Assembly (NCBI GenBank): GCA_008632985.1
Contig: QPGO01000190.1
Span: 62,001 to 126,000, forward strand
Direction of reading: 5' to 3'
Origin: Psammoneis japonica
Taxonomy: Eukaryota
DNA length: 64,000 nt
Part shown: one piece after another, positions 1-64,000 of the stretch
How the letters are laid out: every line of letters starts with the position of its first letter
How positions within the stretch are numbered: position 1 is the stretch's first letter
Program-made: the position numbers and the translations under genes
Notes under the pieces: model-generated
Told to the model about the DNA's origin: nothing
The model's input: only the letters and a program-made list of their open reading frames with translations
Database searches by the model: none

Positions 1-727
1 GTGTGCACCATGGGCTGTGCAGAGAAAAAACATGGTTTGAAGGGCTGCGGGGCCTCAGAATGTGGCAAGAAGGGCAAAGGCCAGATGCCAACTGTCAGGT
101 GAGCACCACATGTTTGAAGAGTGTGCTGGATGTTCTTGGAGGATGCATCTTGCTTCTTCTGTCATTTGAGGTTTAGATTTTTGATTGATTGTGGCTGACC
201 CTGACATGTGGATTTGTGCTGCAACACAACCACAGCAGACATGGTCACGAGCACCTTGAAATGCTGCTGGCATGTGTTGACTGTCAAACAACTCAATGAA
301 GTCATGAAGGTCAAACCAGGCAGAGCCAAAGAACTGATGTGTCGTCTGGGATCAGACGTTGAGAAACTTGAAACCAAGGCCAAGCATTCTGCAGCAGAGT
401 CAGCCCCAAACAGGAACAAACACAAGAGTGTGACAAACCATCATGTGGTTTGAGAAGCTGTTGCAGTGGGTGTCATGAAAGGAAGATGGTGAAACTTGGC
501 GGACATTTTGACAAAATTGGAAACAAATCATGGACATTTTCTCTGTTGTTCAGTTTCAAGTTGGACTCTTGTGCTGTTTTGTCGTCCGAAAAACAGCCAC
601 CCGCCCGTGCGTCGTGCGTCTGCACGTGTTCACAGCACGGATGCTTTCCTGACGTCATCCTCATTTTTCTGCTCGGCTTGCTCACATCTCACATTTTTTT
701 GGTTGGCGCTCCTGGCGTCCCGTTCAC

Positions 728-1100
728 ATGAGGCGCCTTCTCACGTTTCTTGTTGTGCTGATCGTGACCTGCACAGTTCACTCCTTTTGTCCGAGTGACA
801 ATGGAGACCCACGAATTGCTTTCACAAAGTCGCGGCTTGAAGCAATTCCGGATGGAACCACCGCTGCCCTAATCGTTTCCGAGGCTTTGGAAGCCTCCCG
901 GACGTCCTTTTTCATTTGTTTTTTTGGTGCTTCCGGTGCTGCTGTCATTGCCAGAAGCGTGTGCAAAAGTGTGGTGGAGATTCAAGAGCTGAAAGATGTC
1001 GGACCGACTCTGGGAGGATGAGAGACGCAGCATGGTCGGGCGCTCTTGGCGCTCCTGCAAGAATTGGTGACACACTGTTTTGATCCGGGAGCATTGCAAG
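728..1100 (+). pseudogene. Degenerate fragment of a secretory/plastid-targeted membrane protein
   Basis: MRRLLTFLVVLIVTCTVHSF resembles a signal peptide and is followed by a hydrophobic segment (SFFICFFGASGAAVIA). The frame ends early at 1021. Confidence 0.35.
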
Positions 1101-2049
1101 GTGTGTGCATGCACCCCCTGGTGGATGCTCATGTGTGTGCATTGCATGTCTTGTGGAAGAGCTGTTCTTCTGACGCTTCCCATTTTCCCTCTTCTTTGTT
1201 TTAAGCAGTTGTTCAAGGCGGCGTGGAAGAAAACAGAGACACTCTTGTAAAAGGAATGATGAACCATTTGTTTGCCGGATCGGAACGTGTTGGAAGTTGG
1301 AATGGCGAGCATGCTGCATGTTGCGCGTGAAAGTGGAGGAATTGCACACGTGTTAATCTTGCCAACTGCTCTTTTCTCTCTCACAAAGATTGAGCCGAGG
1401 AACACATCATTTGGGGCAAAACTTTCTATGTGGGACAAACGTCATGTAAATGGAGTTTTGGAATTTGAAAATGCTGTTCCTGTTGACTTTGAATTGCTGC
1501 TGTGGAACTCATTTCCATTTCTGTTTTTGTAACCAAAAATTAGCGCGTGGCTCCTGATTGCTTGTTGGTGCACGAAAAGCATGCAGACGCCTTGCTCAAG
1601 GAACTCCAGTCCACCAGGCGGTGGAACGGCACGTTTGTGGCTTAAAGAGCCGCATTGCACTGGCACATGCGCATCTCAACTCACTCCCTGTTTATCATGG
1701 CAGTCTTTGTGGCCCTGAAAGTGGTGAAGAACAGTCAAGCTTGCACACAACAAGCAGCTGTGGAGATCAATGTCTTTGGGTGCTGAGTCAAGACAAGGAT
1801 TTCTTGGCCATTAACGTCAAAGCGAAAACCGCAAGATGTGCACCTGCAATCGTGCAGTCCGCATCAGAATCACCTTTGCTTGGTGTTTGAATTGTTGGGG
1901 ATGAACACATGAGAGGTTTTGAATCAGCGGCAGTTCAGAGGGTTGCCCTTGACAAAGGTTCGGCCGCTGCTCATGAAAACAACGGACGGCAGCGTGAAGG
2001 AATTGTGTTGGCGATCAATTGTTCGACCGAGAAGGATTTTGATTCAAGC

Positions 2050-2326
2050 AATGTCAAGTGATTGCTTTCGGTTCGGCTTGCTGTGAAGGACACACGGCTC
2101 ACACCTACATTCGATCTCGGTTTTACCGCAGCCCAGAAGTTCTTCCACTCAAGGGCACCCTGCGATTCCGCTTTTGACATGTGGTCCTTGGGACGCATGG
2201 CGGCAGAACTGTTCCTCGGATTGTCCATTGCCTCACGGTTATGAACACGATCAGGTGAGGCGAATTTGTGAAACAATTGAACCCATTCCAGACATTGCGC
2301 ATGCTTGGCGAAAGGTGCGTGTCATT
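2050..2326 (+). pseudogene. DYRK/YAK1-family protein kinase fragment (subdomains VII-IX), frameshifted
   Basis: Manual translation gives IAFGSACCEGHTAHTYIRSRFYRSPEVL, then PCDSAFDMWSLGRMAAELFLGL. This matches the DYRK consensus IDFGSAC-x-TYIQSRFYRSPEV..PYD.AIDMWSLGC..AELFLG. Confidence 0.85.
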
Positions 2327-3929
2327 CTTTTTATTTGATGCTTTCTGTTGAACGGATGCATGTGCCAATTTATTGTTGCACGCTGCTCGTCGTTGTTCAG
2401 CACTAAATTTGTCCAAGCACTTTGCAAACTCTGTTTCCAAGTCAGAAACTACTTCAACTCCAATGCAGCCACAAACCGGCACAGACAGCGACAAGAAGCC
2501 ATCATGTTCGCCTCCACCCAAACAATTGTGGCGCATCAAGACACAGCAAGAACATGTGCGACCCTCTTTTCCGTCAAGAGTTTTCCAATTGCCATTCTTT
2601 TTGTCGTCATGGGTTGTGGGTAGTCTGGCACGATTTTGCTTTAAAATGCGGCGCCCGTGTTCAACCAAACCCCTCATTGCTGAGCACGACCTTGGATGAA
2701 CACATCTTCCACAACAGCAGTCGCGGCTTCTGTTTCAGATGGATCTTCGCTCGCGTCGGAAAAGCTCTTGACAAGGGCGTCCTGAAGTGGTTTGGGCAAG
2801 TTCCGGTTGCCGCGAACGCAAAGCATGCCGTTGGCACGCTCACGCAACAATGACGGGCATCATCGGCAATGGCAACCAAGTCCTGCACGTGTGTCTTGCC
2901 GTTCTGAGGCACAGCCTGTGTCGTCCACAGCATCAGCAAAAGGCGCCAATGGACAGACGTCGGCAAAGTGTCGAGTGAGGTGTGCAGCATCCCCGATCCG
3001 ACTCAAGCAACACCTTCAAGGACGCGTCCTCCTCGGCACCAAATGATTTGTAACTGGCCGCGAGCTTCTTGGGATGCTTTTTTTCCTTTGTCGGGTCCTC
3101 AACGATTGTTGACATTCTGATGGAGACCGCCCTTAAGATTGTCGACCAAGCCTGAAACGGGCCTGGTGGATTCGTGCGGTGCATGAGATGCTCAATGCTG
3201 ATGGTCGCAACCTGTGTGGCAATCTTTGGACAAAATGGACGCTCTCAACCAATGACCTGGCACTCAATGACAGTCTTAATTACCTCACTTGCACTGTCAG
3301 CGGATGATTGCAAGCAGACGATGTGAAATCGAGTTTTCAAAAGCGCGAAAGAGATGTTCTGATTACAGTGCGTCATCTAATTTTTGTTTTGTTTTCATGA
3401 TCTTGATCTGCAGGCCGATGCTCTACAGCGCGCGCCAACTGATCCCTCTCGAGCCCCAGTCCCAGTCCCACCCCATGCCTGCCATGCTAAACCCAACAAT
3501 CCGTGAGCTTCTACCTTGCACGCAAAAAGCCCGTCCAATGTTTGTTTTCGTTTTCTCATTCTATTCCGCCAGTCCTGCAATGGTTTTCGACTTGAACATT
3601 GGAGCAAGTGTTGCTGCTGTTCAACATTAGCTTTCAGAGGCAATCTAGATCTTGCATTCTCTTCGACCGGTTTACAAAACCAGTTCCGAAACGGCGGCCA
3701 ACTCACATGTGTCCTCTTGACAATGCGTGCCTCAATGCGAGATCTGGACAGCCTCTTCCAACTTTGCTGCTGCAGTTTAAACTTGAGCACCAAGATGCAA
3801 GTGAGTGCACACCACAAGCTGACATCTGAAACAATTTCTGCCCAACACGTCTTCACGACAATGCAGGCCTGAACAAAAAATAAGATGTACAACCACAGAC
3901 GATCTTCTCCACCCGCAACAGCAAAAAAC

Positions 3930-5180
3930 TCAGCCTCGTCGCACTCCCTGCAACTCGGGAGCCGGATGTTCCTCCAGGTGCTTGTCAATCGTCTGCCTCT
4001 CGCTCCCATCCATACATTTAATGTCGTGATGCGCCACGAGATCATCATCAAAGTAAACCCTGAGAATCTTGGCCAACACACGAGTGTTGTTGCGGCAGCA
4101 ATGCACGTCTTGGCCCTTCTCGTACTTGGACGTCGGTTTTTTGGGGGCGGGAGATAGATTCTTTTCTTCTGTCTGTCGCTCTCTGCCGTTGGAGAAGAGG
4201 ACAGTGTAGCACGGAGTTTTGTCGTCAAGGTGAATGCCAATGATCTTGGCAGAAGCGACGTCGTTGGCATTGCTGTTTGTGCACTTGACGTTCTCGCCGA
4301 CTTTGCACTGGGGCTTTGGAGGGCTCGGCTTGTGAGGCGATGCTTCGATGTCGTCTTTTTCTGATGTTGGTGTTTTTGGGATGGGCGATAGATTCTTTTC
4401 AACCGTCTGCCTCTCTCTGTCATTAGAGAAGAGGACAGTGTAGTGTGGAGTTTTGTCGTCGCGGTGAACACTGATGATCTTGGCAGAAGCGACGTCGTTG
4501 GCATTGCTGTTCGTGTACAAAACTCTCTCACCGACTCTGTGCTGGTGCTTTGGAGGGCTCGGCTTGACAGGTGAAGCTTGGACGTTGTCTTTTTCTGGTT
4601 TGACGTTGTAGCGGCACTTTGGAAGGCTCGGCTTGGGGGATGAAGCTTTGACGTTGTCTTTTTCTTTAAAATCGACGGAGGGTGGGGGGTTGTAGTTTGA
4701 AGACGGCTCGTGAGCCACTCCACTGTTGGAAGCAGTGCCGTTGGCAGAGCTGAACGCAAGAAATGGAATGTCAAAGAAAGAAGGTGACGTTAGAAGCAAG
4801 CGTCATGACAATGGGCAGCACAACAAGAGCAACAAAAACTTGCGATGCAAATGGCTCATTGACGTCGTAACGATGCATCTTGCGTTGCGCCTCCACAAAG
4901 TGGCTGCGACGAACGTGGGGAGGCTGGTTAAATTCAGAACAATTCCACCTTGTCTGCTTGGGCAATGCCGTAGCAAGGATCATATGGAGCCAGAGGAGAA
5001 ATGCAACCACAAAGGTTCGGACGACGATCCAGACGTCGATGTTCCTCAACAAGCAACACAAGACGAAGCAGAGCACCGCGCACACTGGGAACTCTTTAGG
5101 ATCCCTGCGCAGGCAAGAAATGGCTCGGCCACAGTCACCAATGAGAAACAAAGCGTTCAAGAAGAGGAAAGCATACAACA
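3930..5180 (-). pseudogene. Partly mutated gene with three tandem SH3/Tudor-like repeats and a probable hydrophobic N-terminal exon
   Basis: ORF 3930..4799 has 3 copies of (Y)xVGExVxY...AKIxxVHxDD..P(Y)YTV.F..GRERQT.E..L, with several expected Tyr seen as His/Cys. The fold assignment is inference. Confidence 0.6.
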
Positions 5181-5642
5181 TGGTGACATTGTTGATGTGA
5201 CACTTTACTTTCTTGCCAGAACTGCGATTGTGAGACGAAGAAAGTGCGTGGGAAAGTGCGTGCTTGCGTGTTTCAGATTTTCGCGTGTGGGGAATTGTGT
5301 CCGCGAAGTGGCAAGTTGGTTTTGACACAATTTAAACCGGTGCTGGGTTTGATCCAAGCAATCATCTTGAACCCAAACTCAGAATGCCGCTACAATCTTC
5401 ATCGTCATGGCCACGGCGTGTTTTCGTTTCTGCTTGTTTGCTCCTGACGACTTCGCCAAAAGTCTGTGTGAGGCAATAAATCTGTGTCGTGCTTTCCGTT
5501 GACACGCGCATGACAGTTAGTTTTGTTCATTGTGGGGCTGTTGAACGACATGTTTTTTGTGATGTTGATCGCTGTTTCGCGCGCACCAGTGGCGGCCAAC
5601 CACACCAACACACACAACACCATGGGCAACACTTTTGCAGTG

Positions 5643-6082
5643 TGCATGCAGACAAAAGGTTATTTTGTCACGCCCTTTGTGACATTTAAAGGCTGCAACA
5701 CGTCACCGTGATGCATCAACTCTCATTGGCAGCTGTGTGTTGCACTCCTCCCCATGTGTCGCACGTCCATGCGGCTCTTTGCTGACGTGTGCTGACACTG
5801 CACGGTTTTGGCGGAACAGTGTGGGTACGTGCGAAGGAACATGCAGAACTGCACAGAGTTTTACGCGTTCGACAGTGATCAACGTTGCTGCAGACAACTC
5901 CCACTCAGGGTTTCGAACCCCTGGCCTCCTGCCCAATGGTTGCGATGAACCACTCCGCTGTGAATTCACAACGCAGCATGCATGCAGACAAAAGGTCATT
6001 TTGTCACGCCCTTTGTGACGTTTAAAGGCTGCAACACGTCGCCGTGATGCATTGACTCTTGTTGGTGGCTGCATGTTGCACT
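5643..6082. repeat. Pair of ~104-bp direct repeats (5643-5746 and 5979-6082)
   Basis: Ungapped alignment by eye shows 7 differing sites, all at pyrimidine-purine dinucleotides. Confidence 0.9.
5897..5968 (-). other. tRNA-like sequence (pseudo-tRNA or SINE head) with Pol III A and B boxes
   Basis: Minus strand reads CAGCGGAGTGGTTCATCGC (A box/D arm) ... CAGGGGTTCGAAACCCTG (B box/T arm). Anticodon arm and acceptor stem are poor. Confidence 0.6.
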
Positions 6083-6299
6083 TTGCTGTTTTGCGGCCTG
6101 GAATCTCTCCCTTGGCTAAACCACCTGACACCCTTGGTTTGCTGTTGCCAGGGGATTGCTGGAAATGACCGTGTTTGGATTTTTCTCAGATGGCCTGCAT
6201 CCTGCAAGTGGCTCGTGAAACACAAGTTCCGCGCTCTTTGTCCAGACAGCGACACCAGGAACTCGCGCACCAGATGCATTGGTTTCGAGCATGCAACAG

Positions 6300-7640
6300 C
6301 TCCAGAACCATCCCGGTCACATGGAGGTCGGCTTCCAGTCAAAAGAATGTTCAAGTCTCCAGATCTGGGGATCTTTCTGTGTGGTTCCACAATCTCCATG
6401 GGACCAGCTGCTTGTGCTGCGGCGGACCCCGTCACTTGCTTTGACGGCATCTCCCATTGCGAGCATGCTGCCAATGCAAAGATTTGTGGGTGCTGCGTGT
6501 TCCATTGCCATTGACCCGGCAACAGGGTCTCGTGTTTCACCACTGTGCACCACCAGTTGCTCAACTTTGTGGAACAAAAAGACCCAGAAACCCAAAATGT
6601 CATGTTTGAAGCTGTTTGGACAGACATCATTCGAGATGGAACATGGCGCAGTTTCACCCTGTGTGTTTCCTGCGATGGAACAACCAACATGCCTCCACCT
6701 CTGCCAAAGGTCCAGGTGGATTGCAGCCACCTGAACGGGGCACTGCGCGGCCTTGGCTTTGCCCTTTCCGCCATCATGATTCTTCTTTCTGTTGCACTTG
6801 GGGTCTGGACCACCTGCCACAGAATGGGCAGAGTCGTCAAGGCGTCACAGTCCATTTTCTTGCTTTTCACATGCGGCGGTGCTGCATGACACAACAGCCA
6901 TCTGTGTTTTGCCACATAAAGTGAAGACAGGGCTCATGCAATGTTTCGGGGTTGCGCAATCTTGTGTGTGTCGCTGAGGTCGGCCATTGTTCCTTTGAGT
7001 TTTGACAACAAAATTGCGGGCAAAGCTGGTTGTGACCTTGCGTGTCAAAGCACACCTTGGCCATTCATCCTTGGTTTTGCTCTTGCCTTTTCTGCGTCAT
7101 TCAGCATGACATGGCGGACAAACAAAATGTTTCACAAGCCTGGTGGCACCGTTGGTTGCTCTCTCTTGCTTGTTGATGCAGCGATGCTTGCAATTTGGAC
7201 GGGGACAGTTCCCTTGGCATGGGAGCGCGAGATGCTCCCAGCGGACGTGTTTGGGAAGACAGTGGAAACAGGAGGAATTTGCAAGTCCGACGCGCTTGCA
7301 GGGCACGTGTCTGTGCTGGTTGTTGCCACATGGGGGTTGGTGGTGGCTTCGTTTCAGGCATGCTGAGCAAGGGATGTCACTGTTGAGTTTGCTGAGAGCA
7401 CGCACACAGGTTGGAGATGCACAATGCTCGAGGCAGGAAATCAAGAAGTGTGTCGGAGTGGCGGTGATGGCTCGCATGCACAGAACGAGATTCACACTAG
7501 AGAAGGAGGCTCCAGATGTGTGCAGTGTCCGCACATTTTTAACATCACTGTGGTCAGATGCCCCAGCGCATGCCAAAATGCCAATGAATGACTGCGCTTC
7601 ATTGTGACTGCGTTTCATCATTCACCCATGCAGATGATGG
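6300..7640 (+). pseudogene. Class C (GABA-B-like) GPCR, 7TM region, disrupted
   Basis: GLGFALSAIMILLSVALGVWT..HRMGRVVKASQSIFL, PWPFILGFALAFSASFSMTWRTNKMF, PLAWERE and FQAC*ARDVTVEFAES match 7tm_3 motifs. Several stops and frameshifts. Confidence 0.85.
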
Positions 7641-8164
7641 CAGAGAGCTTCGAAAATTGTCAGCAAAACAGAAACGCATCAAAGGCATGAGAAAATCTGC
7701 AGTGGTTGCAGGATGAACAACTGGTCAAGGCACGGCACAAAGGGATCCCCACCGCTGCACTGGCATGCCACATGTCTCAATTGGAAGGACTGGCCATCCC
7801 AGATGCACCGGGATGCGTTGACCTTTTGCTTTTCGTCCCATTTGACCAAGCTCCTCTCATTTCCCATCAAGGTCTGGAAATGCGGTCATGCCCACTGCAA
7901 TTTGTTGGAGACACACGTCCACTCTCGGGGTTGTAAAGCCCAAGAGAAACCCAACCATTGCACAGATGGTTCAGTGGTCGGAATCAACCAAACCCCATGA
8001 GCAGACAGGGAACAGAGAGAAGGCGCTCAAGCTCCATGTCAGTGCTGTTGGGGTGGAGACAATTTGTGTGCTTGATGGGATTAGAGGCAAAGTTTGGGCA
8101 TGGTCAAGCCCAATGCATCCACTCTGGTTCTAATGCACGTCAGCTTCTGCATTGCACATCCTGT

Positions 8165-8460
8165 TTGGGTGATCATCAAGAGATGCTCTTGGAAACTGGA
8201 TGCATTGTGTGCCTCACACAACTTCTTCAAACATCTTGCTGCCAGCTGCTGCACCCTGCTCTTGCTCAAGCCCATGGCATCAGCACACTCAGCAATTGAC
8301 AGGGTGAATCCATTGGACAAACAGCACTGCAATCTCATTGACTGCACTTCACGAGCATTCAGGTTTTGCACCAAAGCTGTCACAATGTCCGCATGTCTGT
8401 TCCACCATTTCCACATTGGCTGTGAAATTCTTGCCATTGCCCATGATGTGATGGAGGCTC
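8165..8460 (-). pseudogene. Sigma-70 factor region 4 relic (nuclear-encoded plastid sigma factor-like)
   Basis: LNAREVQSMRLQCCLSNGFTLSIAECADAMGLSKSRVQQLAARCLKKL matches the region 4 pattern L..RE..V.RLRYGL..G...S..E....MG.S..RV.Q....L.KL. Confidence 0.75.
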
Positions 8461-10029
8461 TTGACTCTGTGTCACAGTCAAGAAGAAAGTGTCTTCCACC
8501 CAAATGATGTGTGATCTTTTGACAGCCAACCACATTTGGGTTCTTGCCTTCCCCAATCTGTTCTGGGGTGCCACCGCACCACCTTCACTTTGGGCATCTC
8601 CCTCCTTTTGTCCAAAAGAAGTGTCAACAAGGGCTCCAACTTCAGCAGCAATGTCCGCTCCAGCCATGGCAGATTGTCTGGGTTCACCTGCAAAGGTTTG
8701 TCAGATTCAATTGCCAGCAAAACTCCCTCTGGCAGTTGCAGCAGGGTTGTGACTTTTGTTGAACACCAGGGAAAAGAATGCAGCTGAGAGTGAGAGTGCT
8801 GCTCTTGTCAAGCTTGCAAGGTGCATCATGAACAGCCACAGCACATTTGGGCACAGCTGGCCAAGACACGAGAGCAAATTTTCATCTGGGCCTCAAAGCA
8901 CATGGCCTTGTGGGCTGGCAGCAGGTGAGGTTGACCAGACTTTGGGTCAACCCAGCATGCAGTGGCAGCTGTGCAGGTTGATGCATGTTTCCAAGGTGTT
9001 TGCACTCTTTGGCACATGACAAAATTCTTGGTGCCAGCAGCAGCACCACAAGCACCAGGGCACAAGCCCAGATTGTTGGCAGCCATGCCATCAGCAGCTC
9101 CAGCCAATGAGATGGAGTGGGTGGGTGGGTGTTCATCAAGAATTGTTCACCTGGACAATTGTGCAGCACCAGCTGGTTTGGACAACAACAATCTTGTGCC
9201 ACTGTGCAGCAGAAAACAATGAATTGCACAGCACATGCTGTGTCTGCAGGCTGGCCCACAGGTGCAGCTGATCATGCAGAAGCACCTTGTGAGCCTGCTG
9301 TCATCCACAGGAGTTTTGCACAGGCAAATCATGACCCAGCTGACTGCCCCACAATTGGCACATCTCATTTCATGAAGGAGTGGCACAGAAGCCATGCATC
9401 ACCAAATGCTTGAGCTTGCACAGAACAGTCTCACAATTTTCACAACACTGGAGTTTCTGTCACCACTCAATTGCCCAGACCCTGCTCCTGTGCTTGGGTG
9501 CAAATGTTCATTCCTCAGGTGGAGATGTCTTTCAAGCCTTGTTCCCAAACCTCAGCTGGGGGGCTGCAGAAGCTTCTTGCTTTCCCACAGGCTTCACACC
9601 GTGTCACACCCAACACTTCCAAGTCCTTGGACTTGGCCCTTGGCTTGGCAGCTTGGCATCAGCTTCAGCAGGTTGCTCAATGCCAAATGTTTTCTTCATG
9701 GCATGAACCTCATTGTCAGACTTTGTTTTGTCACAGCAGCAGCAGCCTTGTGCTTGTGTGCTGCACTTTGCTTCTTGTTCACACAGCTTTGCAAGCTTTG
9801 TCTTGCTCTTTTCCATTGAGAGTGTGCCGTGACACTTTCTGCACTTGCTGCTGTTTTTCCACATGAAACATGCAGCCTCGCTGTTTTGTGCAATTCAACA
9901 TTGCTTCTCTCAGCAGTTTGCACAAGAGCTTTGTTGTGCTGCCTCCACTGCCACTTGCAAGAACCACACCCATGCACACAGATGGCTGCCACAGACAGCG
10001 TGAAACAAATTTCAGTCTCCCACACCCCA

Positions 10030-36426: not shown

Positions 36427-36443
36427 TCGCCAGCTGGAGAGCT

Positions 36444-50305: not shown

Positions 50306-50307
50306 CC

Positions 50308-53900: not shown

Positions 53901-56900
53901 ACTCTCCTCCATGATCAGTTGAAAAACTGGCTTTTTTGTCATCTTTCCACAACTTTAGAACCACCATGATGTGCTGGTCTGCCAAATCCCCCCCCCCACC
54001 CACCCACCCACACACTCACACACACACATGGAGGAGGCAGGTTGAGCTCTTTCATCATAAAAAAACACATCCATGATGGCAGATCTGAGCTCTTGCTGAA
54101 AGCCCTCACCCAACAACTTTGTGCACCAACTTTGGACCTGCAGCTCCAAGTTGCTCAATCTGCAGAGACTTTTCTCTGTGAAGTGGAAAGCCACACACAC
54201 TCAAGCAAAAGGGGTGTGAGCATGCAAAATCAGATGTGATGCAACAGAGGCAATGCTTGTGGCACAAGCGGTGTTCTTCAGTTCCACCCACATGAAGTTG
54301 AGAGTTCTCACCTGCCTTGTTTGTCTCCAGCAAAATGATGCGCCAAACTCCATTGAGAGCATTTGACAAATCACCTCATGGATTGACCCCCACTCAATGC
54401 CATTGCCCATGTTGTTTTGACCATTGGCAAGAAGAAAATTGCCAACACTTTTCATCAGGGTGCAGTGTGCTGAGTGCACACATGCTTGGGTTGCACCAGG
54501 CCATGCAGAAAGTGAGCAGGCACAAAACACCAGTGCACCATCAGACATCTGCCAGATGTTTTGCTGTCCAGGCACAGCAGCATGGGGGGTCTTTTCTAAA
54601 CTCCTGCTGATGGCACGCGCAGTGCACACAAGAAAAGAAGGCACAAACAAATGACACAACACAATTTGTTCAGCCAATGGCTGCCCCTTGCAATCATGAG
54701 TTCTCAAAATCTTTCCCTCTGGCTTGTTTCTAAAAACTTTTGGAGTGTGCAGCGCAAACCAAAAAAGAGCATCATGACCAAGGAAGGGAGTGATTTCACA
54801 CACAGCAACACAAGGAGTGGTGGGTGGGTGTGGCAACCTTGGAAACCAAGTGCTTCTTGAGTCTGGAGCTGAGAAAAGTGAGAGGAGCAGCACATCAGCA
54901 TGTTTTGTTGTGCCATTTCCTGTCACAGGTTTGCACACTGTTGTGACAAAATTGTGAGTGTCCCCTTCACTTGGAGTGCCCAACCTCAAAATGATGAGCA
55001 CTGTGGAGAGAAATGAGCTGTTGCTTTCCAAGTCTTGGGTGGAAACTTGTTTTGTTTGTGTGCCCCATGTTTTTTTTTTGTTTTGAAGTTGCTTCTGCTT
55101 TCTTGTGCATGCTTGAAATCGTCAACTGAGGCATTGTCAGCTGAGTGGGCAAGAGGCCACCCAGGAGGCAAACCAAGTGTGGCAGGTCTCTGGCCCAGAG
55201 CCCACATTGCTCCTGCTGTGTCTTTGACCACAGGAAGTCTCCTTTTGCTTGACCTCTGTCTGGCCACAGCTGTCAAAAAGCAGATGGCAGCACCCATCTG
55301 CAAAGTGGCAAAAGCTTGCCAAGCAAGTCACTCTGTTTTAGCAGATCACAGGATTTGGGGCTCTGTTGTGCCAGCAAAGAGGCACGGCAAGTCTTTGCCA
55401 GCAGGGAGCATTTGTTCAGCACACAGTTGATTCACATCACAAGTTTTCTCATTTGCTTCACATTGCATTTCCCTGATTGTACATTTGGAGAAAAAAGGCT
55501 TCACTCTGAAGATCCAAGAAAGCTCAAGCACCATCTTTGACAGCGTTTTTTTTGTGCAACATCATGTGCATGACTGCCTGCAGCAGCAACTTTTGATGCT
55601 GGTGTGTTCTGAATTTTGAAGCACACTTTTCACCTTTGCAATGGAAGTGGAGCCACAAAGAGCACAACACCACAGCAATCTTCGTTTGCACCAATTCACT
55701 TTGTGCATGTGTTGACAAACTGCAACAACAACGGGTGCAGTTTTCATGTGCTCTGATGACATGTTGTTGCTGCTTTTGCACATTGCTCTCTTTCTTACAA
55801 ACATCTTCTTTTCAGAACAATTCTTTCTTTGCTTGGTGCCCAAGCTGGACGAGCTTTCTTTGTGTCATGCCCCAAGGCTGGCATGAGTGGCACAGACACA
55901 ACCTGTTCCTCCACAATCATGATTGCCACCACGATGTGACTCTCTTTCTTGGAGCTGGGGCATCGTCTCATTGAAGTGTGCAAACTTGCTTCTCAACAAC
56001 ACCCAGTTGTTTTGTCATCACCATGCAACCACCACCGCTCTTTTGCTGCAGATTGCAAAGACAGCTCAGCCATGCCAACAGAGAAAAGGCTGCTGCAGCA
56101 CCTGTTGAGGTTGGTGGAATTTGTCAGCAAGCATGTCTCAAGCATGGAAATGCCACATCATCTGGTGATTGCCACTGCTCACATCATTTTAGCTTGTCAG
56201 CTGCACTGTGTGGTGCTGCAGATGACAAACATCCAAGCTCAAAAGAGCTCCATAAAAAAAAACACACACACATTGGTCTAAACTCAGCTCTGCCCTCTTG
56301 CTCATGCCCTTCGTGTTGCTGCTTGTTGGACAACAAGGTGTTTGTGTTTTTGAGCATGCTCTCCTGGTGTGTGGCTTTTTGTCCAGCTGGAACATCTGGT
56401 GGTCTCTTGTCATTTTGTGGCTCAAGAATGTGACTTTGCACAGCATGTGTGCCATTTCTTCAGCAGTTGAGAGATTGGAAGATGCTGTGTCAACAGCTGG
56501 TCTTGAAAAAAGAAGAACTGTCATGAGCTCCTCTCATGTCTTGCAAACCTGCACCAGCATCATGTTGTCCTCTGCATGAGCAACAACTTTCACACAATTG
56601 TGTTGCTTTGGGTTTTGACAGGATTTTTTTTTGATGTTTGAATTTTTGCCCTCTTCTTGTTGACAGATCACATGTGTTTGCTGGAGAAAATGAGCTGTTG
56701 ATCCATTTGCTTTGCCGGCACCAGCTCTTCCTTGTGGTGTCATCAAGAGCTTTTTTGCATGCAGTGCTGTGAGGGTGGCCCTTCTCTGTGCAGGGGTGTG
56801 GCAAGCAGCATGGACTTGACGGTTTTCATTTGAAATGGAGCAAATTGAGGCTTGCCAAGCCAGAGGAGTTGCCGCATGTCTCTGGAAGACTTGGGTTCCA

Positions 56901-57420
56901 CCCCCAGCAGATCTTCTTGGTCATTTGTTGATGCCACCTCTGATTGGTCCAATGTAAAAGCAGTGCAAGCCAAACCCTGAGAACAGCGCTGCTCTCTCAG
57001 CGCCTTCTTTCATGTTGTGCTTTTCTTCTTGGGGCTGCTTCTTCGTCCAAATGACATCGAGCATTGTCTCAAAATGATCTTTTGCTCTGGTGAAGACTGG
57101 ATGGGACACCTGCTGATGGCCATGACAGGCATCAACGAATGAACCCCACATGTGCAACGTGATGCAGAAGTGCCAGCATGCAGCGCCAGCCCCCCATGCG
57201 GCAGAAAAAACTCTTTCTCTTTTGCAACCAGACTGATGCTGACCAAAGTGTGGTTGTTGTGCAGATGCAAAACATGTCTTCCTGATGACAGGAGTGTCTG
57301 TACCCCACCTCCCACATCTCAACTTCAAACTGCATTGTCTCTGATCCTTGACTCGACCAGCCACTGACAGAATGAATGAATGAAAAAATTGCAAGGGAAA
57401 AAAGGGTCAAAAATGTTGCA
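50920..57420. repeat. TpA/CpG-depleted block 4, made of a degenerate tandem duplication (~51000-53530 vs ~54330-56950)
   Basis: Colinear anchors at 51150/54435, 52485/55920 and 53480/56905. No recognisable protein. Confidence 0.85.
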
Positions 57421-57523
57421 GCCTGTCCATCGCAGGCAAATTTTCAAAAACGCGTAGAAGCCTACATGATTTGTACTACAAATTCTCCCTCCTCAGCACA
57501 TCCGAGTTCCTGATTCCGAGCTT

Positions 57524-57731
57524 TGGGGGGCGTCTTTGGAAGTGAGATCGTCGAAGGCGGTCTGATCGCCAGTGCGTTTGGGGGTTTTCCCAGTACAATT
57601 TGTACGCACAAGAAAACACGTAGGATCTGTCCAGAGGTCCCAAATACCCAATCGCACTGATTGACAGACTGTTTTAGTACAAATTCTACGTAACTTTCTT
57701 CGACAGTCTCACTTCCGAAGACGTCCCCCAN
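57524..57731. repeat. ~210-bp imperfect palindrome (MITE-like or element terminus)
   Basis: TGGGGGGCGTCTTTGGAAGTGAGATCGTCGAAG pairs with CTTCGACAGTCTCACTTCCGAAGACGTCCCCCA, and inner arms CAGTGCGTTTGGGG / CCCCAATCGCACTG also pair. It ends at an N. Confidence 0.75.
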
Positions 57732-57923
57732 GCTGCCGCTTTTTTCCTCGCAGACGATGGCGAAACATCTTCAATCTCCCGAGTCCGTAGACATCCCCGT
57801 TATCGTATCTATACCCTGTTTATTAGAAACAACATGTGCTCGACAAGTGAAAGAGAGATGTGAAGATACAATCATAGCTTCAAATCTACAATTTGGCTTC
57901 CGGTACATTCACTTGTTGAGGTC

Positions 57924-59618
57924 ATGAGAATCGTGGATGTTGTCGCGTTGTGGATCTGCTTGGGGGCGGCGTCCGTTGCCTCTTTGGCCCCCCTTAATCA
58001 CCGCATCAGTCAGGCAATGCGGCGTACAAATGAAATGTCGGTCAGCAACAACATCACGCAAGCACATCGAGCATGCGCTCACTGGAAGACTCTGCTATGC
58101 GAGTGCCAGCGAGAGCGATTGACAGATCAGGTGCAGTGCATCTGCCAAGCTCTTTACGCTTCATGTCTCTCACGTATCGGTCAAGATGAGCAAGCAGTCG
58201 TTTCGTATGATGCCTCTCTTTCACTCAAGGAATTTCTTACCGAAGAAACACTTCAGGAGGTTCTTCAAGGAAAGGCCAAAGCTCTTCAAAGACTGATGCG
58301 CTACGAGGAAGCCAGGAATGTCTTCTTAGGAGGTAAAATTACGGGAGATAACGTGTGCGCTGCAGCAACTTGCTCCCTTCGATTGGGTGATACAGAATGG
58401 GCAATCCGAGTTTTGAGGGGTTTTTGTGAGGACATAAAGAATAGTAGTAGCTTTCGTGCACAGGGAATGCTCGGAGCCTTATTGGCTGTTGTCGATCACG
58501 AGAATGTCGACCATGAACGAATTGGTAGACAACTTGCACAGGGAGCCGTAGCTGAGCCACTCTTCTCCTGGATACATGCAGTCTGGCAGCTAAAACACGG
58601 TGACAAGCTAGCCCTTCTTAACACGTCCGGCGAACGGCAACATAACGTAGATTGCCACTTGCTTCTGGCAAAGGCCAACCAATCACCATTTGATTTTCCT
58701 TCCTTGATCCAATTGGATAATAAGGTCCTCCTTCATCGGTTGTTAACGAGCAAAGATAATGGTTCGGATGGATATTTCTGGCCCACTGGATTCGTGCTCC
58801 CGGAGGAGTCTGCAAAACTACAGGCGCATATTGCTGATTCTCACGCCATGTCATCTTTGCATAATCTCAAGACGTGGATTCTGAAGAAACCATGTGGATA
58901 CGGATCTCACGGCAACAAGTTGGTTACAAGTACTGAAGCAATCCAGACCTCTGAGAAAATGCTGCCGGGTCAAAGATACCTTTGCCAACTAATGGTAGAG
59001 CCGCCTTTGCTTATTGAGGGCAGGAAGTTTTCATTGCGGATTTACGTTGTATACTTTTCGGAGTCCGCTTCAGGTGACGACCAATGTGGATATCTTTTTG
59101 TCTCGGACCAGGGTTTAGTTAAACTTGCTTCTGTCCCCTACGAAATTGGACAAGATAGAAATGACGATCGAGTTCACATGACGAATTCTGGTCGAGAAGA
59201 GGCCATGACGCAGCAAGACTTGGTGTATCTCCGAGGGAAGCTCGACAAAGCAGGCTTCGATTACAGCAAATTCTGGGACGACACATGCAAATCGATACGA
59301 GCAGTCATCGGAAGTTACGTCAAGAATACAATGGTAGAGGGAACGGTATCCTATCGGTCTCGACTTGCCACTTTTGGAATCCCCAAAATCTTGGGCTTTG
59401 ACTACGTGCTAGATGCTAACGCCACACCGTTTTTGATCGAGGTCAATCGCTTTCCTGGCCTTGAAGCAAGGGATAGACGCGATGAATCTGTCAAGCGTAA
59501 AGTGGTTTTGGATGCATGGTTCTGTGCTGCCGACAGACTTGGTGTGGATCCATGGGATTGCTTAGGGATACAACGACAAGAGGACATCGGACATACGTCT
59601 CTGCATCAACTGCTATGA
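57924..59618 (+). CDS. Tubulin-tyrosine-ligase (TTL/TTLL) family ATP-grasp protein with TPR-like N-terminal helices and a signal peptide
   Basis: Intact 564-aa ORF with WILKKP..YGSHG, PPLLIEGRKFSLRIYV, HMTNS and ILGFDYVLD....PFLIEVNRFP. Confidence 0.9.
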   Translation: MRIVDVVALWICLGAASVASLAPLNHRISQAMRRTNEMSVSNNITQAHRACAHWKTLLCECQRERLTDQVQCICQALYASCLSRIGQDEQAVVSYDASLSLKEFLTEETLQEVLQGKAKALQRLMRYEEARNVFLGGKITGDNVCAAATCSLRLGDTEWAIRVLRGFCEDIKNSSSFRAQGMLGALLAVVDHENVDHERIGRQLAQGAVAEPLFSWIHAVWQLKHGDKLALLNTSGERQHNVDCHLLLAKANQSPFDFPSLIQLDNKVLLHRLLTSKDNGSDGYFWPTGFVLPEESAKLQAHIADSHAMSSLHNLKTWILKKPCGYGSHGNKLVTSTEAIQTSEKMLPGQRYLCQLMVEPPLLIEGRKFSLRIYVVYFSESASGDDQCGYLFVSDQGLVKLASVPYEIGQDRNDDRVHMTNSGREEAMTQQDLVYLRGKLDKAGFDYSKFWDDTCKSIRAVIGSYVKNTMVEGTVSYRSRLATFGIPKILGFDYVLDANATPFLIEVNRFPGLEARDRRDESVKRKVVLDAWFCAADRLGVDPWDCLGIQRQEDIGHTSLHQLL

Positions 59619-59634
59619 GTATCAACGCCTCTCA

Positions 59635-60300
59635 TCACAGGGCCAGATAGTCACCAGACAAATCCCAGTCTTCAATGTGCTTCCCGCTTTCAAACCCTTT
59701 TGCCAATGTTGCCTTTAACAACCTCCTGGCAGTATCTTCCGACTTCACGAGTGTGCTTTCTTGGGAAGTGTGGAAGAATTTTCGTACTTTCTCGTCCAGA
59801 TCATGGCATTCAGTAAGCGCCGTCGTCATGGTTGCCGCTAGTAGGGTGCGTAGTTGAGGTATTCGACACTATATTTACCGCAATCTTCTTGCGATAGCGC
59901 CCGTTGAAACATACTAGCATCTATCTTCGCCTTACCAGCGCAACAAATTGACATTGTTGGAAACGGCTCTATCGCACATAGGGAAGATATGTTGACAACG
60001 ACGAAGACAAAATGTGGAGGCGATGAAGGTGGGGTGCCCGACGACTTCTTGATCTATGATCTCCTGAACGAAACGACACTACTACAAACTCGATCTCACA
60101 TTGAGACCAGTAGCCTCCTGGAAATTCCTTACAGACTCAAGTTTTAAGTAGGAGCCCAGAACGCCAAGCGTCCCTGCTTTGTTTATTACATGTAGTATGA
60201 CAAGTCAAATCGACAGAATGAAGAAGATTCCTCTTCCAGAAATCTATCAATTTACTAAGCCAATCTATCCGGCTCGGACTGGTCAATTGCATTTTCACTA
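59635..60300 (-). pseudogene. Sepiapterin reductase-like short-chain dehydrogenase, disrupted
   Basis: INKAGTLG, VVNISSLCAIEPFPTMSICCAGKA, LNYAP and LVKSEDTARRLL..FESGKHI in shifting frames. Confidence 0.8.
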
Positions 60301-60699
60301 ACTTCGAATGTTTGATGAGCTCGTGTTTCGTTTAGAAGCAGTCGTTCAGTCTCAAACAAATTGTCCTGCGACCACGCCACAAATCAGGATCTACTCTGAT
60401 GCAATCCCAACCATCGTCGAGCACACGCGGCATGTGGCAGGCGGAACGATCATGAACATGGACGGTCGGCATGCGTTTTGTCTGAGTGACGTTTTCGTCA
60501 GTGCATCTTGTTTCTCTAGAAACAAACTTCTCTTCGGAGATTTTGAGTGTGTTTGTCGGGGTTCTTACATTCTCGAACAGCCCGAGGTGAAATTCGATCC
60601 GTTCTTCTCCCGCGTGCTCGCAAAGTCACTGAGCGGTGCTGCCAAATGATCTTCTGTTCTCCCTCTTTCTCACACACCCATTGCTCTTTGGACTTTTGT

Positions 60700-63600
60700 G
60701 CTTTGTGATGCAGGCTTTCGGTTGTCGCTCAAGGGTGACCAACACTGTCTCAATTTAATTTTACCCGACTTGACCAAAACAATGGCCAGTTGCTGGGGCA
60801 TGGACGAATGCTGTCAACGGATTCTTCAGCACCGGTGCAAAAAATCTGTGTAGTGCAAAGTGGTTCTTAAAAACTTGAAGTCTGCAAGGTGCTTAAAAAA
60901 CAAAGGAAATGCTGCTGCACCGCACCCAATGCATTGTTGTAGAAATCCGTGAACTGGATGATGGGTGGTTGTTGGGCAGGCGCCCTGCGTGTGTTTGTCT
61001 GGTTACGATCTGCCTGTTTTCGTGTGAAGAGGACATGGGTTAAATTCCATGGACATTTGGGCGCAACTTTAGAGTGGCACTTGAGACGACACGACACAAT
61101 GTGCCTTGCATTTTCCATCATCATTTTCACAATGCCAGTGTTTCCCTTCATGTTCGAAACCATGAGTGCGGTTTGCTTGTCACAGTCAGCACCATCCTGT
61201 CAAATCCTTGGTCACACATGGAGGAATCGCAGCCGTGTCACCCCAAGATGCGGTGGCAAACAGCGGTCTGGTTGCACGACAATCAAGCAGCTTGCTTGCT
61301 TGTGTGCATCTGCCAAATCCTTGACTGCTGTGAGTGACTTCTTTGTCCATTTGTGCTGAGCTGGGACACACGGCATTTTGTCGCATTTGGCGACATTTTC
61401 TTAAATGAGTTGATGATTTGTCGTGAAAAGACGTGAATTGCGACAAAATGTCCGGGTTGGCGACAAACGGGACAGAAACATTGTTCAATTGAGTTTTAAA
61501 ATGATCAATGTCATTTATGACCAACCTGCACTTTGGCGATGTCGTTTCAACAAGCGGGGCAATTGACAGAATTTGGCGGTCGATGTCATCGACGAAAATT
61601 CATCCGACAAATTTTGTCGCGGACATCCGACAAATTTGTCGGATGTCCGACAAAATTTGTCGGCATGCAACACGACAAGACACAACATGACACGACACGA
61701 CAAGACACGACACGACACGACACGACAAGACATGACACAACAAGACACGACACGACACAACACGTCACGACACGACGACTCACGACTCACGAACGAAACA
61801 CCCACGCCCCCCGCACACACCAACCGCTAACGTCTCCGTTGACACTGTGTCTCTTTTGCATGATGATGCAAAGCGACGATCATGCCGCTCTCGGCGGTCT
61901 CCAATGTTTCATCCACAATCTCGTGGAGACGGCACGTCCACACGACTGGGCACTTCTGAATGTTGGGGAGCGTTGCATTATCGGCATGTCGCAAACGTCC
62001 GTCTGTCGGCGTTTGTCGGCTCTTGTTGGCGTTTGTCGGCTCTTGTTGGCATTTGTCATACGTTGTCGGGGTTTGTCGGGGCTTGTCGGGGTTTGTCGGG
62101 GTTTGTCGGATGCGACAAAATTTGTCGCACGTCCGACAAAATTTGTCGCACGTCTGACAAAATTTGTCGCATCCGGCAAAATTTGTCATTGACAAGTGCA
62201 GTCTTCGCCGAAAGTTAAATTCATCACATGGCACTGCAGTTGACACAACGTTTGTGTTTGGGACACGCCATTGCCAATTAAATGATGTTTTTGTCTCATT
62301 TATCGCCAACGATTGAAATTTGTCTCAAAGGGCGTTTTTCACGACAAATCGTCCAATTCATTTAAGGGAATGTCGCAATTGGCGACAAAATGCCGTGTGT
62401 CCCTGGTCTGGAAGCATGGAACAAGCCATGCCTCACTTCAATGTCATGCGTGGACCCTGCACGGCATCGAGCACATTTGCTGAAAGAAAACACAGCCCAA
62501 ACGCACCACTGTGACTGGCTCTCTTTAGAGACGGGCTTTTTTGGCCAGCTCTGGTCATCCTGAATGACTCGTTGTCCACCCTTTCAGGTTTTGTCATCAA
62601 AATGAATCTCTGGAATGTGTCCCACAAAGTTGGCCACTGCAAAATCATCGTCAGACAGATCTGATGCGGACCCACCCTCTGTTTTCAATGCAGTGCAAAA
62701 ATGAAGATTTAGGTGCAACAGCGGACCACAGTGGGGTGAGGCAGAGGACACCACAGGGCAACCACAGGATTCTGCTGTGCAGAGATTTGATTTTTCGAAA
62801 CTTCCCTCTGACACACCGTGCGTGCATGATGTTGGGGCATGCTGCAAACACACACCATCCCACATGCCATGCCACCAGCAAATCAAAATTGACAAGACAA
62901 ACCCCCATGCTGCACTGCACAAACATTTGCATTTGCCAGCAGTGGCAACAATTTCCATCTGCAATCTTGCAACAGAGAGTGGCGCAAATGCACCTTCTCA
63001 GCACTTCTTGTTTCTCTGCTGAAATTCTGTTTAAAAAAGTTTTGCTGGGTGCAAAGTCAAAAATGAGCAGACAAGTCTTCACTTGCTGCCACAGTGTGCT
63101 CGCTGTGATTCTTGGCATGGTGTGTGGAACAATGGCTCGACTGACAACTGGATGAAAATTTCAGTTCAGCAGAACCACCGCACAGTCAAAAGAAAAGAGT
63201 CATGCCACACCACCACAGCAAAAGAGCTGCTGACAAAAAGACAAACCCAAATTAAATGCTGCAAAGCAACAGTGTGCATTGAAAAAGCACATCATCCAAA
63301 ACAAGCCTCTTTCAATTCACGACGTGACACCACGCAATGTCCCAACATGTCACAGACACAAACATGATGTGCGGTCTCTGGCCACAGTGCCAGATTCTTG
63401 GCTGCCAGCCACTCTGGCTCCTGGCAGTCTCAGCACCACTCCAAGGCCCACCATGCCAATGGCTGGCTTGCCTTCAATTTCTTGTCCCTTTGGTGGGCTG
63501 GACACTTTCTTGATGGTTGGTCAAAACATGAGAGGTGTGGATGAGTCCAAATGAGCAACTGTCCAGCGCGGCTCATTGCCAAAGACCAACACAAAGCTCA

Positions 63601-64000
63601 AGCCACCTCCTCACCTTGAGCACCAAGGCCAAGCCACCCCTTCCAGGAGGCTGACCACAACGGGGTTCAGTTTGCCATCGTTGGACCGATCCTTGACATT
63701 GAACAAATCCATGAAACCCCTGCAGACTCCAAGGAAAGCCAGCGGATGGTTGTGCCAACAAGCACCAGAGCAAGGCAAGCATGTGGCCAGTTCACCCAAT
63801 GTGCTCATCGAGACACAAGTTGCCAAGACACAGATGCTGCATCCCACATGGTGCACAATGCTCAAAAATCAAATTGGCAAAGGCAGCAATGTGCGGCTGA
63901 GACTCATGAGCACATTGGCACTGGAGCAACCGTTGCTGAGGGCCAACCACAAGCTGGTGGGGGGGCAAAGGTCAACAGCCCCAAACTCATCACAATGGCA
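60700..64000. other. TpA-depleted hypermutated block 5 (runs off the window end)
   Basis: TA is rare and survives mostly as TTAA/TTA. ORFs are nearly Tyr-free. Confidence 0.85.
61364..62402. mobile_element. Non-autonomous TIR DNA transposon, PIF/Harbinger-like, with 3-bp TSD CTG
   Basis: Termini GGACACACGGCATTTTGTCGC...GCGACAAAATGCCGTGTGTCC with long imperfect inverted arms. CTG flanks both ends (61361-63, 62403-05). The interior has CGACAAAATTTGTCG palindromes, (ACACG)n and GTTTGTCGG repeats. Confidence 0.85.

Follow-up and report, generated by a model that had tools for sequence, protein, structure and literature searches.

Domain-restricted, context-dependent replacement of TpA by TpG and CpA in a contig of the diatom Psammoneis japonica

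INTRODUCTION

Directed mutation as a means of defence is known in the form of cytosine deamination, as in fungal repeat-induced point mutation (RIP) and in the action of APOBEC enzymes. In ascomycetes, RIP responds to duplicated sequence before meiosis: C becomes T at CpA, so that TpA arises, and strand-coherent tracts are left behind. An adenine- or TA-directed counterpart is represented by a single recent report, whose main text brings a proposal for the enzyme and not the enzyme itself. Here we describe a stretch of 64,000 nucleotides of the diatom Psammoneis japonica (NCBI GenBank assembly GCA_008632985.1, contig QPGO01000190.1, positions 62,001 to 126,000 of the forward strand), called the window below and numbered from its first letter, in which long blocks almost devoid of the dinucleotide TA are separated by gene islands of normal TA content.

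The report in question is a bioRxiv preprint (Mettrop et al., 2026; 10.64898/2026.01.13.699255), the main text of which describes mutation-accumulation lines of the chlorarachniophyte Bigelowiella natans in which TpA->TpG/CpA hypermutation arose de novo. In 15 lines, 302 de novo single-nucleotide mutations were recorded. Integrated giant-virus and virophage regions received 231 of them, and 230 of these 231, every one at TpA, were A->G or T->C, with a rate of about 6e-7 per site per generation. Mutations appeared in some lines only, and the giant-virus region is single-copy. The B. natans genome carries 124 clusters of windows poor in TpA and rich in CpA and TpG, and an ADAT2-like deaminase is proposed. 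Flanking context, sparing of TTAA, coupling to CpG decay and diatoms receive no mention in that main text. Literature on TpA loss in diatoms or on TA-directed genome defence yielded only this preprint, and otherwise fungal RIP and ADAR/APOBEC. An initial annotation of the window, made from its letters alone, stated that no pathway of this kind had been described; the preprint has made this statement outdated.

RESULTS

TA-depleted blocks and their borders

Observed/expected (o/e) ratios of TA, TG, CA and CG were computed in 1-kb windows across the 64 kb, and a three-state segmentation was run on the series of pyrimidine-purine steps. Depleted blocks total 41.5 kb (65% of the window) and hold 2-8 TA per kb, versus 42 per kb in gene islands. 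The three states correspond to islands (942 TA in 22,512 bp, 41.8 per kb), to segments depleted in TA with CpG largely kept (126 TA in 15,983 bp, 7.9 per kb; 'TA-only' below) and to segments depleted in both TA and CpG (58 TA in 25,468 bp, 2.3 per kb; 'deep' below). Segments and islands are as follows.

2..580, deep segment, continues past the window start; 1 TA, 5 CG and 134 TG+CA in 580 bp
583..7934, TA-only segment; 71 TA, 367 CG and 1395 TG+CA in 7353 bp; contains a 7tm_3 remnant and an orphan open reading frame (ORF)
7941..15348, deep segment; 21 TA, 74 CG and 1711 TG+CA in 7409 bp; contains a sigma-70 region 4 remnant
15360..20775, gene island with normal TA, control; Asp/Arg hydroxylase and M1 peptidase fragments; 207 TA in 5417 bp
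20779..21700, minus strand, TA-only margin over an ORF with a helicase-associated (HA) domain; 8 TA and 49 CG in 923 bp
21856..32259, largest block; TA-only margins at 21856-22310 and 32034-32259, deep core between them
22313..32028, deep core of the largest block; 16 TA, 97 CG and 2273 TG+CA in 9717 bp; reproduced by read contigs
29975-31149 with 23777-24960, and 31161-31701 with 26459-26993, diverged duplicates in the largest block
32261..36461, island with normal TA, control, without Pfam domain; 215 TA in 4202 bp
36463..41001, TA-only block with CpG half kept and two gene islands around it; 20 TA, 148 CG and 912 TG+CA in 4540 bp
41005..50840, gene island with normal TA, control; zf-HIT, pyruvate phosphate dikinase (44221-47092, plus strand) and SNase; 382 TA in 9837 bp
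50846..57428, deep block, a diverged tandem duplication (51176-53526 with 54524-56954); 18 TA, 50 CG and 1510 TG+CA in 6584 bp
57431..60333, gene island with normal TA, control; ORF of the tubulin-tyrosine-ligase family (57864-59615, plus strand); 127 TA in 2904 bp
60339..62821, TA-only segment with normal CpG; 24 TA, 147 CG and 473 TG+CA in 2484 bp
62823..63999, deep segment, continues past the window end; 2 TA, 17 CG and 280 TG+CA in 1178 bp

In 1-kb windows, TA o/e is 0.00-0.15 over most of the blocks and 0.28-0.80 in islands, with intermediate values (0.25-0.30) at positions 3001-5000. TG and CA rise at the same time to o/e 1.51-2.03 in blocks versus 1.14-1.24 in islands, and the G+C content of blocks resembles that of islands (0.45-0.50; 1-kb windows span 0.43-0.54). 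The core of the largest block retains 16 TA where about 406 would be expected from the island rate. Depletion is confined to discrete regions (2.3-7.9 as against 41.8 TA per kb) and borders switch state within about 50-130 bp: at position 32260, 1 TA in the preceding 600 bp is followed by 20 TA in the next 170 bp, and of the two 250-bp bins at 32001-32500 the first holds 1 TA and the second 19. TA-poor blocks, normal-TA gene islands and sharp borders, as initially annotated, are thus recovered by sliding-window ratios and by segmentation. That description had missed the CpG depletion present in most blocks, where CG o/e falls to 0.14-0.25 in four segments. None of 67 metagenome loci from bacteria and diatoms (surroundings of pyruvate phosphate dikinase genes, on short contigs that are uninformative on absence in other diatoms) had a 1-kb window combining TA o/e below 0.15 with TG/CA above 1.4.

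Read support for the blocks

Contigs built by Logan from a public run (X1) were compared with the window, and what follows concerns the 16 of 929 contig pieces listed. Eight of them (word depth 58-69) span 10,073 bases of the blocks and differ from the window at 14 letters. The piece at 36307-38438 (depth 58) bridges the island/block border at 36462. Because 31-mer assembly at such depth requires accurate reads, consensus or base-calling error is excluded as the origin of the blocks.

Contigs of a second run (X2) are RNA-like, with spliced GT..AG joints 33908>34126 and 35018>35190 on the island 32261-36461. They leave most block bins uncovered, which we do not take as evidence on silence. The same island has a summed DNA-contig depth of 400-630, versus about 60 elsewhere, and appears to be an expressed multi-copy family with normal TA. 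At two listed sites its other copies read CA for TA (ATAC/ACAC and GTAA/GCAA).

An exact 142-bp repeat occupies 48595-48736 and 50775-50916. A single N (48737) ends the first copy, and the second coincides with the change from island to block near 50843. The repeat has the look of a scaffold-gap or overlap artefact, and the position of 48738-50774 may be unreliable.

Direction of change

Per kb, the mass balance amounts to TA -32.0, CG -9.5 and TG+CA +47.4 in TA-only blocks, and to TA -37.3, CG -42.8 and TG+CA +82.2 in deep blocks. Over 16 flanking contexts the gain of TG+CA correlates with the loss of TA (r 0.81 in TA-only and 0.75 in deep blocks). The same shift is seen in translation: in stop-to-stop ORFs of at least 60 aa, Tyr makes up 0.10% in blocks versus 2.16% in islands, with Cys at 6.2 versus 3.4 and His at 5.2 versus 3.5. 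Among stops, TAA+TAG and TGA number 260 and 1824 in blocks, and 791 and 920 in islands.

The ORF with the HA domain (21004-21717, minus strand; E 3.6e-30), which lies within a TA-depleted, CpG-normal margin, provides a protein family as reference. A word-index search with this ORF retained 0 of 307 candidates; an exhaustive HMMER search gave 12,430 representatives, and the 150 best of these supplied 911 homologous segments for alignment. At nine columns rich in Tyr (at least 25% of homologues, 195-808 segments), the ORF carries Cys five times, His once, Phe twice, Met once and Tyr never, while Cys reaches at most 7% in homologues at these columns. The Cys and His codons are TGT, TGC or CAT, each one transition away from TAY. 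Two more Cys stand at Arg-rich columns (CGY->TGY). Over columns 59-221 the ORF has 0.6% Tyr and 5.5% Cys, versus 3.4% and 1.2% in homologues.

Duplicates inside blocks bear on direction independently of protein families. TG-versus-CA discordant sites amount to 46/402 in the pair 51176-53526 and 54524-56954, and to 38/211, 10/111 and 11/58 in three further intra-block pairs. An island duplicate of 300 bp shows 1/34 and keeps 8 TA/TA sites; the island tandem repeat 49578-50313, which aligned to itself, was left out of this comparison. A site that reads TG in one copy and CA in the other must have been TA or CG in the ancestor and have decayed independently in each copy. Differences between window and contigs can be read likewise. 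Among the 40 of 626 differences listed, with adjacent changes counted jointly, five block sites have TG/CA in the window and TA in the contig and none the reverse; eight have TG/CA in the window and CG in the contig, and three the opposite. Exchanges between CG and TG/CA thus make up most (11/19) of the dinucleotide-level block differences listed.

The blocks might owe nothing to mutation: they could be DNA of foreign or ancient origin in which TA was scarce from the start, DNA under selection against TA, or an artefact of sequencing or assembly. Most blocks have no outgroup sequence and the reads may be the assembly's own, which would suit such a view. It conflicts with the Tyr columns that read Cys/His, with other copies that keep TA and with TG/CA discordance between duplicates. 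None of the 67 control loci has a comparable composition, and contigs of depth about 60 match the blocks and bridge a border. We regard it as highly improbable. The observations argue for A:T->G:C transitions at TpA, read here from fixed differences and not from de novo events, and we are confident that the in-place, context-specific hypermutation of TA to TG/CA in non-genic diatom domains is real.

Flanking bases govern the loss of TA

TA steps are not lost uniformly. Survival relative to islands, in TA-only and deep blocks respectively, was:

TTAA: 1.29 and 0.65
CTAA=TTAG: 0.41 and 0.22
GTAA=TTAC: 0.25 and 0.06
CTAG: 0.25 and 0.05
ATAA=TTAT: 0.17 and 0.03
CTAC=GTAG: 0.17 and 0.01
GTAC: 0.07 and 0.01
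ATAG=CTAT: 0.07 and 0.00
ATAC=GTAT and ATAT: 0.03 and 0.00

Half-site rates were fitted on the four palindromes as -ln survival (A 1.75, G 1.33, C 0.70, T 0). Added together, they predict the six mixed contexts, for instance 1.75 versus 1.77 observed for ATAA and 2.03 versus 1.77 observed for CTAC. Survivors tell the same: T lies 5' of 105/226 surviving TA half-sites in TA-only and 76/116 in deep blocks, as compared to 377/1910 in islands (chi-square against islands, p 4e-21 and 5e-31), and T occurs two bases before surviving TA at frequencies of 0.54 and 0.64 versus 0.26. TTAA makes up 23 of the 58 survivors of deep blocks and 34 of 955 island TA. A TA between a T-tract and an A-tract is spared.

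Products are asymmetric. Per kb, ATAA gives ACAA (+2.39) rather than ATGA (+0.27), GTAA gives GCAA (+2.55) rather than GTGA (+0.84), and ATAG gives ACAG (+1.78) rather than ATGG (-0.3). Two xTAA sites of other copies both read xCAA in the window. Since asymmetric products show which side matters, the rule is A->G at 5'-TA(T>C>G>>A); T->C at 5'-(A>G>C>>T)TA describes it just as well. As this rule predicts, AT is lowered (o/e 0.69-0.88) and GC raised (1.23-1.36) in deep blocks. The target is hence not plain TpA, as initially annotated: TA steps are indeed lost, and flanking bases matter strongly.

The rule can also be written with T as the modified base. Dinoflagellates carry 5-hydroxymethyluracil in place of T, preferentially at TpA, and 5-formyluracil gives A:T->G:C. 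A TET/JBP-type dioxygenase working in place on silent chromatin at 5'-(A>G>C>>T)-T-A would produce 5-hydroxymethyl- or 5-formyluracil, which mispairs with G and yields T->C. Given the symmetry of the rule, a T-centred motif fits equally well, and T protects at -1, -2 and -3, as the frequencies at -2 given above illustrate for deep-block survivors. We nevertheless find such an enzyme unlikely, although it ranks first among the alternatives considered, ahead of a burst triggered by duplication. 5-hydroxymethyluracil pairs well with A, and near-complete conversion would need a far more mutagenic intermediate; nothing in this analysis pointed to an enzyme or base of this type in diatoms; and in the main text of the B. 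natans preprint the signature is interpreted as adenine deamination, itself put forward as a hypothesis.

An origin without any dedicated enzyme would invoke biased mismatch repair, biased gene conversion or an error-prone polymerase that favours G:C at TA in late-replicating heterochromatin. Domain restriction and strand symmetry would follow from it as well. Removal is nevertheless near-complete, contexts spread about 100-fold (ATAT 0.00, TTAA 0.65) and a single dinucleotide is exclusively concerned, all of which looks like a sequence-reading enzyme; nor is the overall G+C of blocks raised. This origin is very unlikely.

Both strands are hit, and TA loss precedes CpG loss

A runs test on the order of TG and CA gave z of -0.05 to -2.8 for blocks, compared with -0.33 to -3.18 for islands, and TG is about as frequent as CA. 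With equal numbers and random interleaving, both strands must have been hit site by site. Strand-coherent clusters of one transition, of the type left by ADAR or APOBEC, were not detected in this test, block z values being like those of islands.

The segment 60339-62821 presents the cleanest TA loss without CpG loss (TA o/e 0.14, CG 0.92, TG/CA 1.55-1.62), and none of the window's segments combines CpG loss with retained TA. The two losses are therefore separable, and that of TA comes before that of CpG. Decay of CpG driven by 5-methylcytosine does not account for the blocks: it is only a second component, TA being lost where CpG is intact. The initial proposal of a separate A:T->G:C process, distinct from this CpG decay, finds support in the same segment.

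Within it, at 61670-62187, lie CG-rich short tandem repeats (units ACACG, CGTTTGTCGG and a 21-mer) with small inverted repeats, by which the local CpG count is inflated.

Duplicates differ at 550/4131 sites outside pyrimidine-purine exchanges, a background divergence of 13%. In a simulation, 6% change per lineage raised TA o/e from 0.025 to about 0.19. The value observed is about 0.03 despite the divergence of duplicates, so that the process must have persisted; on the terms of this simulation, it would have done so for long.

CpG decay has a context bias of its own. In the deep blocks 8001-15250, 22001-32250, 50801-57250 and 63001-64000 (manual coordinates), survival relative to islands was 0.08 for TCGA, 0.12 for TCGC/TCGG, 0.13 for CCGG, 0.14 for TCGT, 0.22 for ACGT, 0.34 for CCGC and 0.79 for GCGC; a 5' T makes CpG most vulnerable and a 5' G nearly protects it. 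This bias resembles the reported preference of ADAT2 for TCG in DNA, in the part of that work considered here (PMC10354150).

Gene content of the blocks and the question of repeats

Stop-to-stop ORFs of at least 55 aa in the blocks (462) were scanned with Pfam. Only 7tm_3, Sigma70_r4 and DUF1918 were matched, and heavy decay may mask origin; reverse transcriptase, integrase, transposase, kinase and viral hallmarks found no match among these 462 ORFs. The 7tm_3 remnant (family-C G-protein-coupled receptor; 6515-7363, plus strand, in the frame 5702-7999, plus strand) scores 34.3 bits against a cut-off of 33.5 and contains two in-frame stops; in its segment, o/e is near 0.05 for TA and near 0.56 for CG. 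The sigma-70 region 4 remnant (8084-8584, minus strand) has a Pfam E of 1.2e-4, and E 0.0011 with sigma region 4 of the PDB. It reads LRLQCC where solved sigmas have LRLRFG.

These remnants bear on the Tyr replacements proposed initially. Tyr->Cys/His is present in the HA ORF, another gene than those named, and neither the DYRK nor the copia example was recovered among the 462 ORFs. For sigma, where RY had been taken to have become QC, the remnant is real and LRLQCC is compatible with the change without proving it.

Of the 274 stop-to-stop frames of at least 90 aa in the window, 206 lie in blocks. For an orphan ORF of 464 aa (3398-4789, minus strand), the 8000 candidates scored included no homologue; the frame could be what is left of a decayed gene, or could have arisen by chance where TAA/TAG stops are scarce. 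Another block ORF (51171-52307, minus strand) gave no lead in the ESM Atlas (best score 0.87, low recognition). TA-only segments mostly flank deep ones and contain the HA ORF and the 7tm_3 remnant, the sigma remnant being at the edge of a deep segment. Such TA-only flanks with host-type remnants fit silent domains spreading over their neighbours. The genes of the islands are of common eukaryotic types. Among them, the dikinase ORF is closest to diatom proteins (best identity 73%; Skeletonema marinoi 67%, Thalassiosira and Cyclotella 65-66%), which assigns the window to a diatom and not to Bigelowiella. Scans of the window for tRNA and with Rfam gave no match.

Depth of read contigs over blocks is mostly about 60-125, near single-copy, save for short spikes (summed depth 1296 at 26003-26669 and 903 at 39343-40009). 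The highest sustained depth (400-630) belongs to 32673-36007, an island stretch with normal TA. As to duplication as a trigger, blocks do hold duplicates, and the deepest island stretch and the island duplicate retain TA. The idea that repeats are the target, as first annotated, finds no support in these data: block depth is mostly near single-copy, the high-depth island stretch 32673-36007 and the 300-bp island duplicate keep TA, no transposable-element domain was found in the 462 ORFs and host-type remnants are hit.

A burst akin to RIP is a related idea, in which duplicates recognised by homology undergo one round or a few rounds of mutation at TA at some life stage, for example before meiosis, and the blocks are old diverged repeats. 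Diverged duplications inside blocks, the two depth spikes and other copies of a block piece in the reads speak for it, as does the episodic activity in B. natans lines described in the preprint. The depth of most block bins, the normal TA of the deepest stretch and of the island duplicate, the 462 ORFs free of transposable-element domains and the host-gene remnants hit at margins speak against it. Furthermore, TA o/e of 0.03 at 13% background divergence requires continued action, strand-coherent tracts are missing, and the target in B. natans, a nucleocytoplasmic large DNA virus, is single-copy in the preprint's account. Altogether, a burst appears quite unlikely.

ADARs prefer a 3' G, opposite to the 3' T>C>G>>A rule, which counts against another scenario. 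In this one, transcripts of retroelements or viruses would undergo A-to-I hyperediting by an enzyme of ADAR/ADAT type, followed by reverse transcription and integration. Sharp borders could then be insertion junctions, and RNA adenosine deaminases typically favour a 5' U, according to the main text of the preprint (10.64898/2026.01.13.699255). The equality and random interleaving of TG and CA, free of strand-coherent A->G tracts, do not agree with it; intra-block duplicates decayed independently in the chromosome, host-gene remnants and margins are affected, and neither reverse transcriptase nor integrase was found in the 462 ORFs. It is extremely unlikely.

Two local irregularities of the segments were noted. 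Between two TA-depleted segments, directly upstream of the HA-domain ORF, lies a TA-rich piece of 152 bp (21702-21852, 11 TA), possibly a promoter-like element, or an insertion of later date. At 10312-10481, seven of the 21 surviving TA of segment 7941-15348 are gathered within 170 bp, chiefly as CTAA/TTAA; this cluster may have been inserted more recently, or may be protected locally.

DISCUSSION

Proposed mechanism

The most likely mechanism is a domain-restricted DNA adenine deaminase, although we would give about equal weight to its being right and to its being wrong. According to this model, the blocks would be stretches of diatom nuclear chromosome subject to enzyme-driven A->G at 5'-TA-3', much faster than ordinary mutation; either strand could be hit, hence TA would become TG or CA. 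A TadA/ADAT2-like deaminase would read the 5' T and convert DNA adenine to hypoxanthine, which pairs with C, and A:T->G:C would be fixed. The enzyme would be recruited to putative silent chromatin, or have access only there. Loss of CpG would be a second, slower process, deamination of 5-methylcytosine, so that segments newly entering a silent domain would lose TA first and CpG afterwards. The outcome would be permanent inactivation, with Tyr codons turned into Cys/His and, presumably, TATA boxes and AATAAA lost. An enzyme reading a 5' T possibly also speeds the decay of TCG, TCGA being the most and GCGC the least depleted context.

In TadA-type domains the base to be deaminated is flipped out along with the one on its 5' side, as described in the part of the ADAT2 study considered here (PMC10354150). 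By analogy, joint flipping would fit a strict 5' T. In the same part of that study, amphioxus BjADAT2 deaminates DNA, A at GAA and C at TCG in Escherichia coli DNA, and acts on hairpin loops in vitro (PMC10354150); the GAA preference does not match.

Several points weigh against the deaminase or against the hypermutation from which it is deduced. The only ADAT2 with DNA activity measured in that source favours GAA for adenine, not TA (PMC10354150), and ORF and Pfam scans of the 64-kb window found no deaminase ORF (HxE-PCxxC), so that the deaminase is deduced from its footprint. The context rule is equally one of T->C, by which A-directed and T-directed enzymes are indistinguishable. The Tyr evidence comes from one ORF, in a family at 26-47% identity, and Phe equals Tyr in several columns. 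In a younger duplicate pair, 13426-13645 and 12519-12749, only 1/54 sites are discordant, so some decay predates some duplications. Survival ratios presume that the ancestral composition of blocks was island-like, and this presumption is only approximate, as the value of 1.29 for TTAA in TA-only blocks illustrates. Finally, X1 may be the assembly's own reads and not an independent platform, and an unfamiliar DNA chemistry that every polymerase reads alike may still be at work.

A wider reading, which we put forward only tentatively and with some doubt, is an ancient defence common to diatoms and chlorarachniophytes, and thus to the stramenopile-alveolate-Rhizaria (SAR) assemblage. Chromatin-guided adenine deamination at 5'-TA(not A) would act continuously on whatever silent domains contain, be it viral or transposon DNA or host DNA overrun by heterochromatin, until Tyr codons, TATA boxes and poly(A) signals are gone. 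If true, this SAR-wide pathway would count as a counterpart of RIP on the A side, and as the first adenine editor of DNA found in nature to have a defined trinucleotide motif.

Significance

Context dependence, action on both strands site by site, its apparent long duration and the lead of TA loss over CpG decay are new here. The order TAT>TAC>TAG>>TAA with TTAA spared is a biochemical fingerprint that can be held against candidate enzymes and against B. natans, and a natural chromosomal A:T->G:C enzyme would be relevant to base editing. The process shapes a large share of a genome in an ecologically dominant group, and can erase protein and promoter signals so thoroughly that standard annotation finds only 'orphan' ORFs in blocks. 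Segmentation by TA, CG and TG/CA could chart, at little cost, chromatin that has long been silent in diatom assemblies.

Comparison with known systems

Deamination of 5-methylcytosine at CpG yields the same TG/CA products and is active in the same blocks, but cannot remove TpA. As with RIP in fungi, a dinucleotide-specific transition hypermutation leads to permanent inactivation and leaves aberrant blocks with sharp borders. Unlike in RIP, TpA is destroyed here, duplication dependence was not seen and there are no tracts; the signature of RIP, creation of TpA with raised TpA/ApT, is not found in the blocks, where TA o/e is 0.03-0.15 and CA/TG are raised.

The natural substrate of TadA and ADAT2-3 is adenine 34 preceded by uracil 33 (U33-A34). 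These enzymes and the adenine base editors derived from TadA are zinc deaminases that turn A into I, as proposed here; we know of no targeting of TadA or ADAT2-3 to chromatin. ADAR and APOBEC3 likewise restrict parasitic nucleic acids by deaminase-based mutation, and ADARs favour a 5' U, as stated in the B. natans preprint. Their targets are RNA or single-stranded cDNA, they leave one-strand tracts and ADARs are metazoan, whereas both chromosomal strands are hit in the diatom.

The B. natans system, as its main text presents it, is the closest. Both cases involve exclusively TpA->TpG/CpA, discrete regions, a footprint poor in TpA and rich in CpA and TpG, a target that need not be repeated and a proposed adenine deamination. 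One concerns a rhizarian and the other a stramenopile diatom, and mutations seen de novo there are deduced here. In B. natans the active regions show mild depletion (Rho TpA 0.45) and can be recognised as viral; the diatom blocks reach 0.03-0.15, occupy 65% of the window and bear host-gene remnants without viral or transposable-element domains. The diatom footprint is thus the more extreme, with TA down to 3% of expectation, and the process is not confined to one alga: that of the diatom is of the same kind as that of B. natans, far more advanced and with a slower CpG decay on top.

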